From an uncultured virus (IMG/VR IMGVR_UViG_3300042923_001406) (taxonomy: Duplodnaviria > Heunggongvirae > Uroviricota > Caudoviricetes), in IMG/VR virus record IMGVR_UViG_3300042923_001406: 20,000 nucleotides of DNA; one strand, 5' to 3'. The notes beneath the pieces were generated by a model. The model ran no database searches. It was not told the DNA's origin and saw nothing but the letters and a program-made list of their open reading frames with translations. Below, piece after piece: positions 1 to 15,096 of the stretch. Both the position numbers and the translations under genes were made by a program. Each line of letters begins with the position of its first letter. The first letter of the stretch is position 1.

Positions 1-120
1 TTTTCCGAAGTAAGTGCTGTTAACTCAATAATAGATACAACTAAAACTGAAGAAATGCAATATCTTTATAATGGTAGATATGATGAATATGCAAAAGAAA
101 TAGATGAATTATATAAATAA
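1..120 (+). CDS. 3' end of a hypothetical protein (partial, starts before window)
   Basis: Frame 1 is open from base 1 (FSEVSAVNSIIDTTKTEEMQYLYNGRYDEYAKEIDELYK) to TAA at 118-120, directly followed by the SD of the next gene. Confidence 0.75.
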   Translation, partial: FSEVSAVNSIIDTTKTEEMQYLYNGRYDEYAKEIDELYK

Positions 121-133
121 GGGGATGTTATTT

Positions 134-472
134 ATGGATGATATTAGAAAAAATAGACATAGAAAATCATTAGAATATGCCTTAAAAATCTTATTAGACA
201 AAGAGTATAATAAATATATTTTATCCATATACTTATATGGAAGTTGTGCTAGAGCAGAACAGAAGTATAATTCTGATGTAGATTTATTTATATTTATAAC
301 AGAAGATATGGATAGAAAAGTTTATAATAAACTTAAAAGTGATATATCTCCAGAATACTTAGGATTACCTATAGTCGATTTACATTGTAGTAAATCTGAT
401 AAGTTTAGTGATGTTAACTTATTTAATAAAAATTTAAAGAAGGAGTCAGAACTTTTATGGGAAAGAAGTTAG
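134..472 (+). CDS. Minimal nucleotidyltransferase (MNT, Pol-beta superfamily), putative antitoxin
   Basis: Motif IYLYGSCARAEQKYNSDVDLFI matches the hGSxARxxxxxxSDxD signature, with a further acidic residue in IVDLH. ATG 134 is preferred over 104 because AAGGGG lies just upstream and 104 is inside the preceding CDS. Confidence 0.9.
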   Translation: MDDIRKNRHRKSLEYALKILLDKEYNKYILSIYLYGSCARAEQKYNSDVDLFIFITEDMDRKVYNKLKSDISPEYLGLPIVDLHCSKSDKFSDVNLFNKNLKKESELLWERS

Positions 473-960
473 ATTATTTATTTTATGCTGAAGACGATTA
501 TAGATATGTAAAAGAAGTTATTAAGACAGGTTTAGTATTTAATGGTATTTGTCATAATTCTCAAAATATTTGTGAGAAGTATTTAAAACATATAATAGAT
601 ATTAATGACTTAGATGACTTAGAAGTTATGAGAACACATTCCTTAAAAGTTTTATACAAATTTATTAAAAATAATATTAAAGATTTTAAATGTAATTGGG
701 ACACTATTCTTAAAGTAGATGGTTATTATTTTCAAGTTAAATATCCTGGAGATAATTCATTTACAGCAGACGAAGAAGACATTAAGAAATCATGGGATGC
801 TGTAGTTGAAACTAGAAATTCAGTGTTAAATTATTTAAAGACTTTTAAGATAAGTAATAAAGAGGATATAATTAAAGGTATAGATGATTTTATTGAACAG
901 TTAAGGGAAACTAGTTTAAAAGATGCATTATCAAAAGATTTTGATAGTAATATTGAATAA
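457..960 (+). CDS. HEPN domain protein (MNT partner) with about 40-aa C-terminal extension
   Basis: SQNICEKYLK matches QQxxEKxLK, RTHSLKVL matches xxHDLxxL, and YFQVKYPG matches YxxxRYP. It overlaps MNT by 16 nt and has SD AAGGAG at 440-445. Confidence 0.88.
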   Translation: MGKKLDYLFYAEDDYRYVKEVIKTGLVFNGICHNSQNICEKYLKHIIDINDLDDLEVMRTHSLKVLYKFIKNNIKDFKCNWDTILKVDGYYFQVKYPGDNSFTADEEDIKKSWDAVVETRNSVLNYLKTFKISNKEDIIKGIDDFIEQLRETSLKDALSKDFDSNIE

Positions 961-5188: not shown

Positions 5189-5368
5189 GTGAAAAAGATT
5201 TCAGTTAATACATTACAGAATATTGGTATAAATAAACTTATAGATGAAAATATAAGATTTACCATTACACATGATGAAGAAGAAGATATTGAAGAGGAGG
5301 ATAAAATTAATAATGTCAGCGATAAAATTACCTTACTTAGGGAACAATGCTTACGCGGAAATTTATAA
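5189..5368 (+). CDS. Small acidic hypothetical protein (59 aa, GTG start), missed by the ORF track
   Basis: GAGGAG at 5173-5178, GTG at 5189. Translates MKKISVNTLQNIGINKLIDENIRFTITHDEEEDIEEEDKINNVSDKITLLREQCLRGNL* and begins 2 nt after the upstream stop. Confidence 0.6.
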   Translation: MKKISVNTLQNIGINKLIDENIRFTITHDEEEDIEEEDKINNVSDKITLLREQCLRGNL

Positions 5369-5852
5369 TACTCCTAATGGTTATCAAGAAGTAACTAATT
5401 TAGATAAATATAATAATAGTATTATTAGAAATACTAGGATATTTAGAGTAGATTTATTATACTATTTGAATGATTATTTTGAATTAAGTACTATAAGGAA
5501 ATACAGAGCAGCAATATATTATATAATATCAGGTATTGCTATGATGAAGAGTAATAAAGATTTAATAGCAAAATCATTAGAATCATTATATAAAGAAGAC
5601 CCTAAATTTAAAATATTTATAGGTAAAGTCTACTATTTTAGAGATACGGAAGATGAAGAGTTATCTTTATATGAAGCAATAGTAACAAATGTAAATAAAT
5701 CTATATTAAGTTTATTAGATGAATTACCAAAGAAAATACCTAGTAAAAAGTATATAATAAATTCACAGTTATATTTATATTTTTCTATAGATAGTATTTT
5801 TCCTATTGAAGAACTAATGAAAGTTAAGGGATTGGAAGTGATTTCGAGATGA
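5313..5852 (+). CDS. Hypothetical protein (179 aa), translationally coupled to the polymerase
   Basis: ATG 5313 follows GAGGAGG (5294-5300). The track's start at 5271 adds an MMKKKILKRRIK stretch that looks like an off-frame reading of GAA/GAT codons. ATGA overlap with the polymerase. Confidence 0.75.
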   Translation: MSAIKLPYLGNNAYAEIYNTPNGYQEVTNLDKYNNSIIRNTRIFRVDLLYYLNDYFELSTIRKYRAAIYYIISGIAMMKSNKDLIAKSLESLYKEDPKFKIFIGKVYYFRDTEDEELSLYEAIVTNVNKSILSLLDELPKKIPSKKYIINSQLYLYFSIDSIFPIEELMKVKGLEVISR

Positions 5853-8800
5853 TGAAAGTTGGTATATTCAGAGATATTAAGAATAACATAGATTATACAG
5901 TAGTAGTAAATGTTGTTCAAAATAAGGGAGAACGTATAGAAATATATAGAAGGAAAGAGGATTATTCACCAATTGATACTTATAATGCTATTTCAGCTTA
6001 TTATAGAAAATCAAGAGAATATTACTATGGTGATAGTGAATTAATAAGAGAGTATTTAAATGCTCAAAATTCATGTATAACTATAAAGGGAGAATTAAAT
6101 CAAACAAGTACATTTAATCAAGAGGGTTTTATTATAACTCAAATGAAAGTAAATGAACAATTAGGGTTATCTAGTAAGGTTATATTAGTAAATGGTATAA
6201 TAAAAGAGGAATTATATGTAACACCTAACTATATGATACATATAGATGGTATAACTGAAATGAATACAAATATATTTGTAGACCCTTTAAATATTAAAGA
6301 TTATAAAATAATATCTATATTATCTGATTTTCAAGATAATGATACAATAGATGCAGATTATTATTCATTAGATTATTTAAAATCAAAATATCCTATAGAC
6401 CATGTAGATAATTATGATTATTTAATAATAGAATCTATTGAACAAGCAGAGGAAGAACTTAAAAAATGGAAGAATTCTAAAGTAAAAATAAAGTCCATAG
6501 ATATAGAGTCTACTGGATTAGAAATGTCTGTGTTTGGTGAAGATTTAATAACCGGAGTAGTCTTATCATATGATTGGGAGCCATTAGGTGAAGTAGAAAA
6601 TTCAAGATACTTTCCTTTTAGACAAAAGAATTTTAAGTATAATTTACCTTTAGATTTTTTAAAGAAAATTGAAACTGCTGTAAATTCACAACCTAAAGCT
6701 AAAACAATAAATTTAGATGTTTATGATGGTACATTAATAGTTGCTCATAATATGAAAATGGAAAAGAAAAGTTTCTGGAGAGATGAATTAGATGTAAGAA
6801 TTGATATGGATACATATACATTATCTACTTTAATAGATACTAGAATGGAAAGAGGATTACATACATTAAAAAATAGAGCACAACAAGCAACTAAATTATT
6901 CTGGTTAGAGTTGGATATGGTATTTAAATCTAAATTAATAAGATTTGATATTTTACCTTCGGAAATAGTAAGATATTATGCTTGTCCAGATACAGCTAAT
7001 ACTATTAAAGTACTAAAATGGTTATATAAACAATTACCAGAAACTGAACAAGAAGTTTATATGATAGAAAATGAATTACAGTATACAAAAGCTAATCAAG
7101 AATACTATGGTTTAAGATTAAATCAAGAGGGATTAATAAAAAGACTTAAAAATGTTGAATTTATAGTGGATAAATTATCTGACATATTTAAAAGAAAACA
7201 TAATACTTCTAAAAATATAAATTCAGCAGATGTATTAAGAGATATAGTATATAATAAATTAGGATGTAAAGTTGTAGTTCGTACAAAGAAAAATAAACCT
7301 TCAACATCAGTAGATGCTATTTCAAATATAGTAAAACATGGTCTAATTAAAAATATTGATTTAGACAAAGATGTTCCACCTGATGTATTAGATTTATATG
7401 GTAAATCTATAATAGATGGTAAAGAATTAAAAAAGAATAAGTATCCTACTTTAGTTATTTTATCATATTATAATAAGTATAAGAAAGAGTTAGGAGCTTT
7501 AAGACGTTTACAAAAGAAATCAATAAATGATAGAGTAATGTTTGGTATAAATGGTACAGGTGCAGCTTCAGGTAGACAAACTTCAGACGCACACCAATAT
7601 TCAGATACTATGAAAGAATTAGTATTATCTGATACACCAGAACATACATTAATATCATCAGATTATTCTCAAGTAGAATTAAGAGTTCTTGCTTATATTA
7701 TAAAAGATACAAGATTAATAGAGCTAATGAAAGATAAACATATAGATATACATAGAGCATTTTTATCCATTATTAATGGAATACCTGTACATATGATTTC
7801 AGCAGTAATGAGGTCAAGTGGAAAGCGTGTTAATTTTGGTGTTGTATATGGTATATCAGAGTATGGTCTTGCTAGAGATACTTATGGACCAGAATATACT
7901 AAAGAACAGTTATTAGATAGAAAGAAAGCTATAACAGATTTCTTTAATGGTATACCTGGTTGTAAAGAATTAGCTGATTATAATAGAAAATTTGTATTCG
8001 AACATGGTTATATAGAAACACCATTAGGATACAGAAGAGTTTTATATGGTGTATTTGATGAAGGATTAACTAAAGCACAAAAAGAAAGAATATTTAGAGC
8101 AGCTAATAACACACCTGTACAAGGATTTGCTGCACATTTAATGAAGATGGCAGAAAATAATGTAATGAGGTATATAAAAGAAAAAGGTTGGGACAAAACT
8201 ATAACTTATATGGGTAAAGAGTTTCCGTTAGTTAGAAATATGTTATCTATACATGATGAATTATTAATATCTGCACATAATTCAATACCTAAAGAAGAAA
8301 TAGTACTTATGTGCAAAGAGTGTATGGAAATAGAATTTAAAGATGCACCTCCTTTCTTTGCAGTACCGACTTTTGTAGAAAATTGGGCACAAGGTAAAGC
8401 TGAACAATTTGAAATGTCTGTTTCTATGAGAGATGATATATTAGAAGCATGGTTAAAAGAAGGAAAATCAATAGTAGATTGGGATAATTTAACTTATTCA
8501 ATAAATGAATATAAATTAAATCAAATAAAAGATTATATGGAGTCTTTAATAAGAAAATATAAAACAGAAGAAGAAATTATTAAACATGTTAATCATCCAG
8601 AATTTACACATTTATTAATTTCAGTTTATGTAAATAAAGATATTGTTAAGAAAAATTCACATGAAGATTGTATTGCTATTGCAGTAAAAGAATATATGAA
8701 TAATCCTGATAATGTAATAGTAGTAGAAAATTCTTATGAAGAATATAAAGAAAATAAAGAAATACAAGATTCCATTTCTTATTTGAAAGATTTTGAACAA

Positions 8801-9178
8801 TATATTGAAATTGATGATAAAGGTCAAGTTGTATTACCAGAAGAAGATATAGATAATGAGTTTACAGAAGAAGATTCTGAAGATTATAGGTTATTAATAG
8901 AAAAAGAAGAAGAAGAAAGATTTAGTAAAACTTCTATAGATTTAGTATATTTAGGTAATATAGCTATAATAGACACTACAGAAATACAAACGAAAGAAGA
9001 TTTACAAAAATTTCATAATTCTATTGTAAAATTATGTGATCCTAAAGGGTATTACCAGTTAAATTATATGCGTGGTGGTTCTATGTTACCTACTAATTTA
9101 AAAATGGATTATAAACAAAAAGAAATAATGGAATTAATAAGTAAATATAAAACTAAAGAGGTGATTAAATGTCGTTAG
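5849..9178 (+). CDS. polA: Family A DNA polymerase with 3'-5' exonuclease, no 5'-3' exonuclease, long N- and C-terminal extensions
   Basis: ExoI SIDIESTG, ExoII VAHNMKME, ExoIII YYACPD. Also GTGAASGR, motif A SSDYSQVELRVLA, DIH, motif B RSSGKRVNFGVVYG, GYIETPLGYRR, NTPVQGFAA and motif C SIHDELL. Confidence 0.95.
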   Translation: MMKVGIFRDIKNNIDYTVVVNVVQNKGERIEIYRRKEDYSPIDTYNAISAYYRKSREYYYGDSELIREYLNAQNSCITIKGELNQTSTFNQEGFIITQMKVNEQLGLSSKVILVNGIIKEELYVTPNYMIHIDGITEMNTNIFVDPLNIKDYKIISILSDFQDNDTIDADYYSLDYLKSKYPIDHVDNYDYLIIESIEQAEEELKKWKNSKVKIKSIDIESTGLEMSVFGEDLITGVVLSYDWEPLGEVENSRYFPFRQKNFKYNLPLDFLKKIETAVNSQPKAKTINLDVYDGTLIVAHNMKMEKKSFWRDELDVRIDMDTYTLSTLIDTRMERGLHTLKNRAQQATKLFWLELDMVFKSKLIRFDILPSEIVRYYACPDTANTIKVLKWLYKQLPETEQEVYMIENELQYTKANQEYYGLRLNQEGLIKRLKNVEFIVDKLSDIFKRKHNTSKNINSADVLRDIVYNKLGCKVVVRTKKNKPSTSVDAISNIVKHGLIKNIDLDKDVPPDVLDLYGKSIIDGKELKKNKYPTLVILSYYNKYKKELGALRRLQKKSINDRVMFGINGTGAASGRQTSDAHQYSDTMKELVLSDTPEHTLISSDYSQVELRVLAYIIKDTRLIELMKDKHIDIHRAFLSIINGIPVHMISAVMRSSGKRVNFGVVYGISEYGLARDTYGPEYTKEQLLDRKKAITDFFNGIPGCKELADYNRKFVFEHGYIETPLGYRRVLYGVFDEGLTKAQKERIFRAANNTPVQGFAAHLMKMAENNVMRYIKEKGWDKTITYMGKEFPLVRNMLSIHDELLISAHNSIPKEEIVLMCKECMEIEFKDAPPFFAVPTFVENWAQGKAEQFEMSVSMRDDILEAWLKEGKSIVDWDNLTYSINEYKLNQIKDYMESLIRKYKTEEEIIKHVNHPEFTHLLISVYVNKDIVKKNSHEDCIAIAVKEYMNNPDNVIVVENSYEEYKENKEIQDSISYLKDFEQYIEIDDKGQVVLPEEDIDNEFTEEDSEDYRLLIEKEEEERFSKTSIDLVYLGNIAIIDTTEIQTKEDLQKFHNSIVKLCDPKGYYQLNYMRGGSMLPTNLKMDYKQKEIMELISKYKTKEVIKCR

Positions 9179-9966
9179 CAGATGATTTAACAACTATTAT
9201 GAAGCAAACTAGTACTTACAAAGAAGAAACACCTTCTAATATAGAAGATATAAATAAAGAAATAAGTGATACAAGTAATAATGAATCTGTTAAGGAAGAT
9301 GATAACCCATTCAAAAAAATTAGTTTAAGTAAAATATTAACAAATCCTAAAATGATTATGAGTATGTTAGGAATAATTATACTCATAATCATGGGTATTA
9401 TATTTATACCTGAATTAATTAAAGAACCAGAAGATACAGGTGCTGAATTTTTAGAAGATTTGGATATTACTACTTATAAATATTCTCTAGAAGAAAAGTC
9501 ATTAATGAGAATAGCTGGATATACGGCGGATGAAATTGAAAGATATGAAATTGAAGAAAGAGATCCTTATGAATTAATAAAAGAAGTAGAAATAAAAAGA
9601 AAAGAACAATATGAAACAGATATAAAACCATTATTTGATAGTGCATCAGATGAATATAAGTTTTTAATGAATAATACATGGGTTGGTGGAAAAGACATAC
9701 TACCAGATGTAATAACTACTAAAGACTCTAATTATAATAAAAGTTATGGTACTTATAATTGTGACTATAGAAAAATTCCTGCAAAAGGTTCACAATTATT
9801 TTTAAAATTATATATTGTTGAACTAAATTCAACAGTTTTTATGTCTATAACTCCAGAAAGATATAGTGAGTTAAATGAAACTGGTAATATAGTAGTTACA
9901 TTATATTTTAATGAATATAGTGATGGTTCTATTATAGTAACAGAAGTTAGTGAAAAAGAAATATAA
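9169..9966 (+). CDS. Single-pass membrane protein (265 aa)
   Basis: Hydrophobic stretch MIMSMLGIIILIIMGIIFIP at about aa 62-81. SD GAGGTG at 9158-9163. Confidence 0.8.
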   Translation: MSLADDLTTIMKQTSTYKEETPSNIEDINKEISDTSNNESVKEDDNPFKKISLSKILTNPKMIMSMLGIIILIIMGIIFIPELIKEPEDTGAEFLEDLDITTYKYSLEEKSLMRIAGYTADEIERYEIEERDPYELIKEVEIKRKEQYETDIKPLFDSASDEYKFLMNNTWVGGKDILPDVITTKDSNYNKSYGTYNCDYRKIPAKGSQLFLKLYIVELNSTVFMSITPERYSELNETGNIVVTLYFNEYSDGSIIVTEVSEKEI

Positions 9967-9978
9967 GAGAGGTATATT

Positions 9979-10770
9979 ATGATAATACAACAAGCAGAAC
10001 TAATACCTGATTGGTTAAAGAAGGATTTAGATGACAAATGTCCTTTTTGTGGTTCTTTATATGAAGTAGGATACTCTCCTAATGGTAAAAGAGTTACTAA
10101 ACATTATTGTCCTAATAAAGAGTGTTCAGAAACTATTGTGAGTAAAATGGTATTTGTTTGGAATATTTTAAAAGTAGATGGTATTAAAGAAGGTCGTTCA
10201 AGAGAATTAGTTAAGAATAACAAAATTAAACACCACTTAGAAGCTATACCTTTAGTTTTAAAGAATAAACCACGTATTGATTTAACTACTTATATGAGAT
10301 TAAATTGTATACAAGGAATTGATACAACATGGGATAAAATTTGTTTTAATAAAAATTCTTTAGATGAAGTATTAAATTCAAATGATATAAGAGGAATATT
10401 AGATATTGAAGATGTAAATAATGCAAAAAAGTATATTTCTAATTTTGATATAGTATATCCCAATAAACCTAAACATGAATCCATATTAAATATAAGTATA
10501 ATGATGACAGGAGATATATTAGGATTTGAGCCTAGAGAATTGTTAGTAGTAGCTATGAATAAAAAATATAATGGTCTTTTAAATTTAGGGTATTCTAAAT
10601 CAATAAGAAAGACTGGTATATTTGCATTAGTTAAAGATCCTAAATCAAGTGTTACAAATAAAGTTAGTGTTGCCTTAGATTGTGGTATACCTATTATGTC
10701 TCCAGAAGAATTTATAATAAAAGTAGATAAATTGATAAGAGAAAAGGTTGGTGATAACTATGAATTTTAG
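9979..10770 (+). CDS. Zn-finger/HhH/BRCT protein resembling only the C-terminal half of NAD-dependent DNA ligase
   Basis: C4 finger CPFC...YCPNKEC, degenerate HhH (LKVDGIK, NCIQGID), and BRCT-like MMTG...KSIRKT...LV...NKVSVALDCGIPIMSPEEF. No KxDG adenylation domain. SD GAGAGGT. Confidence 0.8.
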   Translation: MIIQQAELIPDWLKKDLDDKCPFCGSLYEVGYSPNGKRVTKHYCPNKECSETIVSKMVFVWNILKVDGIKEGRSRELVKNNKIKHHLEAIPLVLKNKPRIDLTTYMRLNCIQGIDTTWDKICFNKNSLDEVLNSNDIRGILDIEDVNNAKKYISNFDIVYPNKPKHESILNISIMMTGDILGFEPRELLVVAMNKKYNGLLNLGYSKSIRKTGIFALVKDPKSSVTNKVSVALDCGIPIMSPEEFIIKVDKLIREKVGDNYEF

Positions 10771-11110
10771 AAAATTTATAGAAGATAAATATGACGTAAG
10801 AGAAAGAATAAAACAATTACAAAGTAATCCTATAAAAGATTTTCTAGATAGTGATATATTTCCTTGTGATTTTGTAACAACAGAAAATGGTGAAATGGTT
10901 AAAATGTTGTATTATGGTAACGGTACTAGAGAAATAGCTGTGCTAGACTTATTATCATATACAAGAGAAGATTTGATAAAAATAAGTGATAAAGAACTTT
11001 TAGAACTATATGATGCTTATACCTCTAATTTCAATTTTGAAAAAGCGTCTTTATTAGACATGTCTAAATTAGAAATAATTAGAAAAGAGTCTATAAAAGG
11101 TATAGTATAA
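10760..11110 (+). CDS. Hypothetical protein (116 aa)
   Basis: ATG 10760 follows GGTG at 10750-10753 and overlaps the upstream stop. The ORF track instead starts at TTG 10748. Confidence 0.75.
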   Translation: MNFRKFIEDKYDVRERIKQLQSNPIKDFLDSDIFPCDFVTTENGEMVKMLYYGNGTREIAVLDLLSYTREDLIKISDKELLELYDAYTSNFNFEKASLLDMSKLEIIRKESIKGIV

Positions 11111-11111
11111 T

Positions 11112-11906
11112 ATGATTAATATTATATTAAAAGAAGATAAGCAAAATATAGATTATGATTATATTTTTAAAGATTTAATAGAATTTAAAGAAAAAACTAA
11201 ATCAATATATAAACCAATACTAGGTATATATAATATTGGTTTATATTTAAAAGATATAAGAGACATAAAAGAATTATTAAATAATAAAAACAAATATAAT
11301 CATTTAAATATAGATTTATTATTAGAAGAAAATATATTTAAACAAATTACATTAGCTATACCAGATTTAAAAACATCAGAAAATAAAAATTTTATGGAAT
11401 ATTTAATAGATGGTATATCTAAACGTAATATGATTATAAATAAAAAAGTAGTATATTTAATGTATAATTCAATAGGTAAATCTTTTATGGAAATAGATGA
11501 GATTCTAGATAAATTATATTCTATATATGGTTCTTTTATGGAAATAACAGATAAAGATGTATCTAAATATATTATAATAAATGATATAGTTTATCCAAGA
11601 AATGTATTAATAGCTTATATAAATTTAGATAAATATAGAAAAATAAAATTAGAAAAATGTTTATCATCCATAAGTAAGGATATAGTATTAGCTTCAATGG
11701 TTAAACAAGTAAAAAAATTACATGAACAAAAAATTAAATATTTAAATACAGGATTAGGTAATAAATTTATAAAAACATTAAATACAAAGAATTTAAACTT
11801 AATGTATTATTTATTAGTTACAACTAAACCATATTATTTAAATGATATAATTATTTTATTAGAAATATATGAAAGAGGTTTAAGTTTAAATGATATACTT
11901 TACTAA
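11112..11906 (+). CDS. Divergent DNA polymerase III delta (HolA)-like clamp-loader subunit
   Basis: INKKVVYLMYNSIGKSFMEIDEILDKLYSIY...ITDKDVSKYI resembles the HolA lid pattern IxxxAxxxLxxxxGxDxxxLxxELEKLxxY...ITxEDVxxLV. VLASMVKQVKKL resembles the collar helix. The N-terminal domain is shortened. Confidence 0.6.
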   Translation: MINIILKEDKQNIDYDYIFKDLIEFKEKTKSIYKPILGIYNIGLYLKDIRDIKELLNNKNKYNHLNIDLLLEENIFKQITLAIPDLKTSENKNFMEYLIDGISKRNMIINKKVVYLMYNSIGKSFMEIDEILDKLYSIYGSFMEITDKDVSKYIIINDIVYPRNVLIAYINLDKYRKIKLEKCLSSISKDIVLASMVKQVKKLHEQKIKYLNTGLGNKFIKTLNTKNLNLMYYLLVTTKPYYLNDIIILLEIYERGLSLNDILY

Positions 11907-13637: not shown

Positions 13638-13961
13638 ATGATAATATTAATAATATTAAGTATAATATCATTAATTTTAACGTTATATTGTAATCCTACT
13701 AACATTGTTTCTTGGGTATCAATAATAACAACTTTTACATTTATATTAAGACCTATAGGAGTACATGTAAAAGTAAACAAAATAATACCTATAGAACTAT
13801 TAATAACTTTTTTGGCTTTTAATGGTTCTTTAATGTTAAAAACGTTTAGTTTAAAAACGTATATATTTATGATGTTGTGTAGAGGATTATTTTATTTAAT
13901 TGTATTATATGATGATAAAAGTTATATATACATACAAGAAACAGAAGAAAGGGAGTTATAA
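13638..13961 (+). CDS. Small multi-pass membrane protein (107 aa)
   Basis: Three to four hydrophobic segments, starts 3 nt after the upstream stop. Confidence 0.75.
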   Translation: MIILIILSIISLILTLYCNPTNIVSWVSIITTFTFILRPIGVHVKVNKIIPIELLITFLAFNGSLMLKTFSLKTYIFMMLCRGLFYLIVLYDDKSYIYIQETEEREL

Positions 13962-13965
13962 TATT

Positions 13966-15096
13966 ATGAGAAATGGTATTATAGATACAATTCAGTTAAT
14001 TACAAGCATAGATAATGATGTAGATAAATTATCTGTTTGTATGAAAGATTTAGATAGTTATATTTTATTTGGTAAATTAAATGATTATTTATCTTTTATA
14101 GATAAAGAAGTAGAATTTAATACTAGATGGGATATTATTAATGGAATTAAAGAAGAAGTTATAAATACTATAGCTGTTAAAAGTATAATTCAGAGTGTTA
14201 TACCAGATATTAATTTAGGTGTAGACGAATTAGAGTTAAGTAGTTTGATACCTGATAATAGTAAAGCTATTAATGTTATAACATTTGACAAAGATTCCTT
14301 AAAAACAAATGATATAGCTTTAGCACAAATTATTTTAATATTAAATTATAAAGATGGTAAGTCTAAAGTTACTAGATGGAAAGATTTTCAATGTTTAGAT
14401 GTAAATTCTAAGGTATTTAATTTAAGATTATTTACAAATTCAGATGAAGTAGATGAATTTTCTAAAAATGCTCAAGGTAAATATGTTATGGTTGATATAA
14501 AGAATACAACTTATGGATTACAAGTTTATAAAGACATGAGTATTTATGAGGAAGAAGTTAAAGTACCTTCTGAAGTATTATTATCTACATTAAAATTAAA
14601 AATGTATATAAGTAAAGATAATGAATTAGAAAGTTATGTTGAAAAATATGATATGATAAACAAGTTAAAAGGTATTATGTATTTTGAACCTGGATATCAT
14701 ATTGTAGAAATTGTAGCTGAATTAATGATAATATCTACGGTTTGTAGGATATTTGAAACATATGATAGAAAACTTCTTTATAGAGCAGCATTTGCAAGTA
14801 GAGGTTATTTAATGAAAACAAATACTAAACTCTCTAATACACTTATTAATTATCATAATATAATTACTAGTGATTTAAAGACAGATTTAGATTTAATAAG
14901 ATTACTTGATACAAATCTACCTATAGAAGAAGGAGATATAAATAAACAAGCTTTCTTGTCAATAAGAAAAATTGTTACATCTTTAATGAGAGGAAAGAGG
15001 GGACTTTATGAAAAGAATATTATTAATGATTATATTAATACTATTGATAGTCAATATAGTGGGTTGTTCCAAAGAGGAATCATCGACTTGGATTAG
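13966..15096 (+). CDS. Hypothetical protein, possibly a degenerate YhaM/Cbf1-like OB-fold plus HD-fold protein
   Basis: ATG 13966 follows GGGAG at 13951-13955. CLDVNSKVFNLRLF...GKYVMV...YGLQV is OB-like, and GYHIVEI...FETYDRKLLYRAAF resembles YhaM H..EV...YP..NRDLL..GALLHD but lacks the HD. The ORF is secure, the family call is weak. Confidence 0.45.
   Translation: MRNGIIDTIQLITSIDNDVDKLSVCMKDLDSYILFGKLNDYLSFIDKEVEFNTRWDIINGIKEEVINTIAVKSIIQSVIPDINLGVDELELSSLIPDNSKAINVITFDKDSLKTNDIALAQIILILNYKDGKSKVTRWKDFQCLDVNSKVFNLRLFTNSDEVDEFSKNAQGKYVMVDIKNTTYGLQVYKDMSIYEEEVKVPSEVLLSTLKLKMYISKDNELESYVEKYDMINKLKGIMYFEPGYHIVEIVAELMIISTVCRIFETYDRKLLYRAAFASRGYLMKTNTKLSNTLINYHNIITSDLKTDLDLIRLLDTNLPIEEGDINKQAFLSIRKIVTSLMRGKRGLYEKNIINDYINTIDSQYSGLFQRGIIDLD

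Follow-up and report, generated by a model that had tools for sequence, protein, structure and literature searches.

A 20,000-nucleotide stretch of an uncultured virus record (IMG/VR IMGVR_UViG_3300042923_001406), hereafter the window, raises the question of which polymerase copies the element to which it belongs and which clamp and loader serve that polymerase. A run of six genes at positions 5313–11906 encodes a long family A DNA polymerase (PolA), the C-terminal half of an NAD-dependent ligase, and a protein resembling the delta subunit of bacterial clamp loaders, from which a sequence-only reading proposed a hybrid of PolA and polymerase III (Pol III) accessory proteins. The part of this proposal that has gained ground is that a predicted clamp and a loader ATPase are encoded by the element itself; the functional coupling of PolA to this clamp is a step that we still infer. 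The long PolA is probably the replicase (we put the probability at roughly 0.65), using the element's own clamp loaded by DnaX and the delta-like subunit. Such Pol I-type self-replication with Pol III-style helpers is likely because a long PolA, a clamp, a loader ATPase, and a clamp-opening subunit are predicted together and no Pol III polymerase is detectable. This reading draws on genes, catalytic residues, and the lack of a family C polymerase on a closed circle, and on clamp and delta folds predicted from models.

Polymerase, clamp, and loader genes of the element

The 1109-aa PolA matches Pfam DNA_pol_A (E = 1.8 × 10−47) and, as the sequence-only reading had it, carries no 5′–3′ nuclease, with no match to such a family in Pfam and NCBIfam scans. 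Residues D218, E220, Y377, D381, D605, R655, K659, Y667, H802, D803, and E804 are invariant in 120/120 aligned sequences; the first four are proofreading exonuclease residues, and at the acidic Exo II position 113 sequences have E and 7 have D. Motifs A, B, and C and a Klenow-like modeled fold point to a proofreading family A polymerase, the core aligning with the Klenow fragment in VIA at Z 30.3 and a root-mean-square deviation (rmsd) of 2.8 over 574 residues. The small domain near the C-terminus (residues 1030–1100) has a predicted β-β-α-β-β-α topology and is a candidate accessory-binding domain, whose strand/helix pattern resembles, by eye only, that of the tau-binding C-terminal domain (CTD) of the Pol III alpha subunit. 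Atlas features, a PDB sequence search, and Pfam yielded nothing on its identity, and hhalign and hidden Markov model comparisons with E. coli DnaE and the PolA tails of Bacillus plasmids gave no match. In whole-PolA fold searches, the matches are taken up by the Klenow core, with none for the N- or C-terminal domains.

Relatives were compared at 15 loci (28–52% GC, about nine distinct lineages spanning the block), and the one full-length relative among the 80 viral loci kept is G001 (52% GC). At one locus (L091:7892–12028), PolA and the downstream membrane gene form one continuous frame of 1378 aa in which the PolA tail is lost, maybe through an assembly error or a deletion. The whole contig (G000) also encodes a second PolA of 445 aa (G000:7041–8378), which adjoins an RNase H gene and has an ortholog of equal length in G001 (L111:3845–5182). 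This short protein begins at the thumb region, has motifs A, B, and C intact in both genomes, and gives no exonuclease match; both short PolAs fall below the cut for the polymerase tree and are left out of it.

The predicted β clamp was recognized from its model, which aligns with β clamps at template modeling (TM) scores of 0.77–0.81 over 330–338 residues, as for a three-domain β fold, and has an isoelectric point of 5.5. A 330-aa open reading frame (ORF) occupies the equivalent position in G001. DnaX belongs to a family of approximately 370–420 aa in which Walker A is present in 60 of 64 members and a low-complexity linker is followed by a short C-terminal motif. Of 64 homologs, 47 have this tail motif within their last 22 residues and none has it in an upstream window (shuffle mean 2.2, maximum 7), the pattern having been derived from the same sequences in which it was counted. 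By analogy, it may be a docking tail comparable to that of E. coli tau, whose extreme C-terminus binds the polymerase according to the accessible text of PMC1888804.

Pfam identifies on the contig DnaB, a two-gene primase, a stand-alone 5′–3′ nuclease (G000:54395–55423), a DEDD exonuclease, two RNase H genes, and UvrD. The rest of the contig, to which the sequence-only reading had pointed, thus supplies a predicted clamp, DnaX, DnaB, and a split primase, with no HolB (delta-prime) and no DnaE detected. For the family C polymerase, DNA_pol3_alpha has no match in G000 or G001, whereas it exceeds the cut-off in 10 of 14 control genomes; an own DnaE/PolC, which could have explained the delta subunit, is therefore not found in either. 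For delta-prime, the holB model matches only DnaX in both genomes, and a DnaX profile over 518 six-frame segments finds no second member, although a diverged delta-prime could escape, as the delta-like gene did in G000.

The two primase genes (TOPRIM, G000:33922–34734; zinc finger, G000:89773–90249) lie 55 kb apart, and the ligase, primase, and Pol I functions are all split on the element, a recurring pattern. Two further proteins were recognized by eye, with no convincing family match: a DnaC/DnaI-like helicase loader near dnaB (G000:85696–86352) and a protein with an acidic tail that may bind single-stranded DNA (G000:37210–38427).

The contig is 141,451 bp long (23.7% GC), the window being its final 20 kb, and nearly all of its genes are coded on one strand. 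Its ends share a 225-bp overlap with one mismatch, and closing them restores an intact FtsK ORF of 1172 aa (1160 aa in the relative); because of these two features, the element is a closed, plasmid-like circle of 141,226 bp. It also encodes RNA polymerase beta and beta-prime, a pilus-type ATPase, an actin-like protein, and an S-layer protein. The IMG/VR record classes it as viral. No capsid, portal, or terminase gene appears when 147 ORFs are scanned with Pfam and sets of 27 and 52 proteins with PHROG, though diverged virion genes could escape; the sole terminase match is a weaker cross-match on FtsK. The GC content and SLH domains point to a Bacillota host. No host genome was found, searches of genome contigs for related loci being empty, and the delta alignment finds no related locus in metagenomes. 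Searches for repeats and tRNAs gave nothing above chance in the AT-rich DNA, and no RNA data set containing the element is listed among sequencing runs.

The putative delta subunit and the fork it may serve

The 264-aa product of 11112–11906 is a predicted delta-like clamp-loader subunit, in line with the sequence-only reading. In Foldseek, all 28 matches listed for its model are clamp-loader subunits (best E = 3.3 × 10−7; B. subtilis delta, 2.7 × 10−6), and the top two VIA matches are the E. coli and B. subtilis delta subunits, spanning all three domains. The best of these has Z 8.8 and an rmsd of 15.4 over 232 aligned residues, with a differing domain orientation, and solved delta subunits are approximately 70 aa longer. 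Walker A is found in 0/23 homologs, and so there is no ATP-binding P-loop. Residues 33–38 form a hydrophobic loop with a nearly invariant Gly at its end and a strand next, which, by eye, may correspond to the hydrophobic clamp-wrench loop that follows a domain I helix in HolA.

Sequence searches are more reticent. The delta-like ORF has no Pfam or NCBIfam clamp-loader match, and its alignment finds no clamp loader among PDB sequences or in Pfam. The curated HolA model leaves the window protein unmatched and reaches the G001 ortholog at E = 1 × 10−4 (17.9 bits against a cut-off of 80); because this model also matches DnaX proteins, the match speaks for loader kinship and not for delta specifically. 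The ORF could accordingly be a degenerate AAA+ protein with another job than clamp opening, as the missing family match, an hhalign E of just 0.057 against the delta of the Lysinibacillus plasmid pBsph, and the similar VIA Z reached by DnaA/Hda lids would allow. This is highly improbable, however, given that, of the eight best VIA rows, those aligned over all three domains (model residues 1–255 or more) are exclusively clamp-loader subunits, that the Foldseek matches listed are all loader subunits, and that DnaX and a clamp are encoded on the same element.

In the favored reading, the long proofreading PolA would copy the element while held on DNA by the predicted β clamp, which the DnaX ATPase would load together with the delta-like subunit. 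DnaB, the DnaC-like loader, and the split primase would build the fork, and the separate 5′–3′ nuclease, RNase H, the short second PolA, and the two-piece NAD ligase would finish Okazaki fragments. Since no delta-prime is found, the loader may consist of four DnaX and one delta. The conserved tail of DnaX may serve to tether another fork protein, possibly the CTD of PolA. A complex prediction for PolA 850–1109 with DnaX 350–395 scored 0.21 against a mark of 0.32, a figure that stands without folded controls. A possible though rather doubtful extension is that large single-strand-coded elements, forming a widespread family, have reassembled a holoenzyme of the Pol III style around PolA, with a DnaX4–delta loader free of delta-prime, a DnaX tail docking on the PolA CTD as tau does on alpha, and an exonuclease-less second PolA for the lagging strand.

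Several points weigh against PolA working with this clamp. Its whole support consists of gene co-occurrence and predicted folds. The VIA scores for delta (Z 8.8 and 8.7) and gamma (8.1) are tied, and the delta-like model has a predicted TM-score (pTM) of 0.41 and TM-scores of only 0.23–0.32. The clamp candidate of G001 is just 17% identical, and the curated DnaN model (TIGR00663) misses the clamp in both G000 and G001. No sequence homology links the PolA CTD to that of E. coli alpha (hhalign E = 0.48, with 4/30 shuffles equal or higher), and a motif scan of the long PolA found no classic clamp-binding motif. Evolutionary distances correlate with those of PolA at 0.91 for delta and at 0.88 for an unassigned neighbor (45 non-independent pairs); co-divergence thus does not single out delta, and its linkage to PolA is nothing special. 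Finally, neither a PolA nor a DnaE was detected on pBsph, which has β, DnaX, delta, and delta-prime, and therefore plasmid clamps and loaders can exist without a replicase of their own.

The complete clamp and loader set of pBsph and the missing clamp motif in PolA are also what would be seen if the element's clamp and loader served the Pol III (DnaE/PolC) of the host as the bulk replicase, leaving initiation, repair, or transfer-linked synthesis to the PolAs. We consider this unlikely because the clamp, DnaX, and delta have diverged much further than those of pBsph (they score below curated cut-offs or escape detection), a divergence that speaks against their docking on the polymerase of a host. 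Moreover, DnaX has 395 aa, below the 500–600 aa of cellular-type matches, and 120/120 sequences keep a proofreading PolA whose extra domains are conserved. The size and conservation of those extensions could also mean that PolA is a replicase processive alone through its extra N- and C-terminal domains, with the clamp serving the ligase, the nuclease, and the short PolA on the lagging strand. A second, short PolA whose motifs are intact in G000 and G001 alike fits this arrangement, and the available text of PMC3201878 describes other phage PolAs proposed to be processive via fused domains or thioredoxin. It appears less likely still, as a full loader, including the delta-like gene 1.9 kb from polA, is retained across the family and the conserved DnaX tail implies a fork partner.

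Local gene order contributes little to the choice of PolA and its own clamp. PolA, the membrane protein, the ligase half, and delta keep their order in 14/14 related loci that reach the delta gene, so that the genes are indeed linked in relatives, and 61 ORFs of G000 have homologs in G001 in nearly fully retained order. Hsp70 and several small membrane-like genes are also kept, however, the whole block of about 15 kb being equally syntenic, and the clamp and DnaX genes lie 55 and 68 kb from polA. The local cluster is weak evidence for these reasons, and the reading of the run as a replisome cluster is not supported; because synteny is not specific, the argument rests on the gene inventory.

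Gene neighborhood and split ligase

The six ORFs of the run are all present on the same strand and overlap or almost abut (Table 1), as described from the sequence. The intervening ORFs had been regarded as ORFans and potential replisome subunits; homologs occur in 12–14 of the 15 related loci, and no evidence links these ORFs to replication. The 179-aa ORF has no Pfam, NCBIfam, or PHROG match, and the membrane-like protein following PolA is probably not a replisome subunit.

Table 1. Features predicted in the window and in related sequences. Positions without a prefix are those of the window; aa, amino acids; RBS, ribosome-binding site; HhH, helix-hairpin-helix; pLDDT, predicted local distance difference test.
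Feature	Position	Strand	Basis or remark
NAD ligase N-terminal half, 3′ end	1..120	+	Gene begins upstream of window at G000:120462; 369 aa
Conserved 179-aa ORF	5313..5852	+	ATG, strong RBS; overlaps PolA start; homologs in 12/15 loci
Family A DNA polymerase, 1109 aa, probable replicase	5849..9178	+	Pfam DNA_pol_A, fold, alignment
PolA residues 1–165, predicted β-rich N-terminal domain replacing 5′–3′ nuclease	5849..6343	+	AF2 secondary structure; 120/120 sequences
PolA residues 185–850, 3′–5′ exonuclease and polymerase, Klenow-like core	6401..8398	+	VIA versus Klenow fragment
PolA residues 858–951, predicted helical extension	8420..8701	+	AF2; 120/120 sequences
PolA residues 1030–1100, small C-terminal domain after acidic linker	8936..9148	+	AF2, pLDDT ~90; 120/120 sequences
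Conserved 265-aa protein, one membrane-like hydrophobic stretch	9169..9966	+	Sequence; homologs in 14/15 loci
Split NAD-dependent ligase, C-terminal half	9979..10770	+	C4 zinc finger, HhH region, likely BRCT
Conserved ORF, ~120 aa, no known family	10748..11110	+	Homologs in 13/15 loci
Delta-like clamp-loader subunit, 264 aa, without P-loop (predicted)	11112..11906	+	Foldseek, VIA, alignment, holA match of G001 ortholog
Predicted β clamp	G000:40753-41793		Atlas model versus β clamps
DnaX, 395 aa	G000:58943-60130 (L004:3044-4231)		TIGR02397, E = 1.3 × 10−35
Long PolAs of Bacillus plasmids	L117:5254-8652, L113:19773-23246		Possible cultured models

The NAD ligase is divided between two genes. Its N-terminal half matches positions 24–283 of a PHROG NAD ligase (E = 2.6 × 10−15) and Pfam DNA_ligase_aden (E = 1.5 × 10−4) and carries the KxDG motif of the adenylation half. 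The stand-alone C-terminal half (263 aa), correctly recognized from the sequence, matches positions 390–454 (E = 4.9 × 10−8); its four zinc-finger Cys residues are invariant in 10/10 sequences, while its BRCT part is weakly supported (5 bits versus the Thermus ligase). LigA, in contrast, joins adenylation, OB, zinc finger, HhH, and BRCT regions in one chain. Two-gene phage NAD ligases, presumably including that of T5, likewise place the adenylation and zinc-finger halves in separate genes, and PHROG families of 325 and 256 positions match the two halves (the latter through the G001 ortholog). Unlike in these phages, the halves here are separated by about 9.9 kb, and the element that carries them is plasmid-like.

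An inserted nucleotidyltransferase and HEPN gene pair of the MNT-HEPN toxin-antitoxin type (window 104–960) separates the ligase half from hsp70; no homolog of this pair was detected in the 15 related loci. The short Hsp70 (457 aa, 990–2363) is kept in 12/15 loci. Farther downstream, a 398-aa ORF (13900–15096) present in 13/15 loci looks by eye like an OB-fold plus helical protein and has no family match.

Comparison with known systems

To our knowledge, the replicases served by bacterial-type clamps and loaders are of family C. The element shares with the bacterial Pol III holoenzyme a predicted β clamp, DnaX, a delta-like subunit, DnaB, a DnaG-type primase, and a stand-alone DEDD exonuclease. 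It differs in having no detected family C polymerase or delta-prime, in encoding the primase and the ligase by two genes each, and in a short DnaX with only a tail beyond the collar. Chromosomal Pol I carries a fused N-terminal 5′–3′ nuclease, whereas here the nuclease is a separate gene. pBsph, which is large and conjugative, has β, DnaX, delta, and a stand-alone 5′–3′ nuclease as the element does, but it also has delta-prime, lacks a detected PolA, and encodes subunits near the cellular ones. If the element has no delta-prime, its loader would share the layout of four ATPases and one non-ATPase with T4 gp44/gp62, as described in the accessible part of PMC3201878; T4, however, combines gp44, gp62, and gp45 with a family B polymerase, and the element combines bacterial-type DnaX, delta, and β with family A.

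Two Bacillus plasmids without DnaE encode a related PolA (1132–1157 aa) and DnaX (422–431 aa), namely NZ_CP045024 (349 kb) and NZ_CP076292 (216 kb). The former is presumably pXO16, whose size it shares. Their PolA aligns with the element's family at an hhalign E of 5.7 × 10−40 (24% identity over 703 columns), and its sister grouping with that family is weak (82/42). The DnaX tails look alike by eye and fail the tail pattern. Neither β nor delta was detected on the two plasmids, by DnaN and holA models that also miss the window element's own.

Among viruses, a Vibrio Mardecavirus (L118:3463–8900) has a β-like gene immediately preceding PolA and, two genes further on, one resembling gamma, and an Aquificae virus has PolA and β with no obvious loader in the text available (PMC7689252). 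In the accessible text of a PolA reclassification, the word "clamp" occurs once, within a reference (PMC10201439), and the corresponding portion of a review covering pXO16 holds nothing on its polymerase (PMC6199540). A literature search, in a collection lacking most subscription papers (the primary pXO16 ones among them), found no description of the element's replisome.

The combination of PolA with Pol III-style helpers is not new in principle. In the available text of their 2011 study, Kazlauskas and Venclovas report PolA, β, and gamma in phages RSL1 and Ma-LMM01, propose that β serves PolA, and ask if the loader is completed by subunits of the host or by one resembling gp62 (PMC3201878); a 2016 supplement gives the same set for both among the entries covered (PMC4889955). 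The novelty lies in the delta-like subunit and the conserved tail of DnaX, which come together with two PolAs and an apparently missing delta-prime. The delta-like subunit is a candidate for the loader subunit missing in the 2011 question, and PolA, β, DnaX, and delta form a small defined set that makes the PolA–clamp and loader questions testable by reconstitution. If the favored reading is true, a bacterial-type loader would work without delta-prime, the replication of large Bacillus plasmids with related PolA and DnaX could be explained, and a clamp-dependent PolA could serve long-read amplification.

Ralstonia phage RSL1 and Microcystis phage Ma-LMM01 thus stand closest in gene content, with PolA, β, and a gamma-type ATPase and no family C polymerase listed in the accessible tables; a search of Ma-LMM01 found none either. 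A delta profile gave no match on Ma-LMM01, in a search that had no positive control and covered that phage and not RSL1. Gamma is the sole loader gene found for the two phages in the same accessible sources, whereas this plasmid-like element also encodes a delta-like candidate and a much longer PolA with extra domains.

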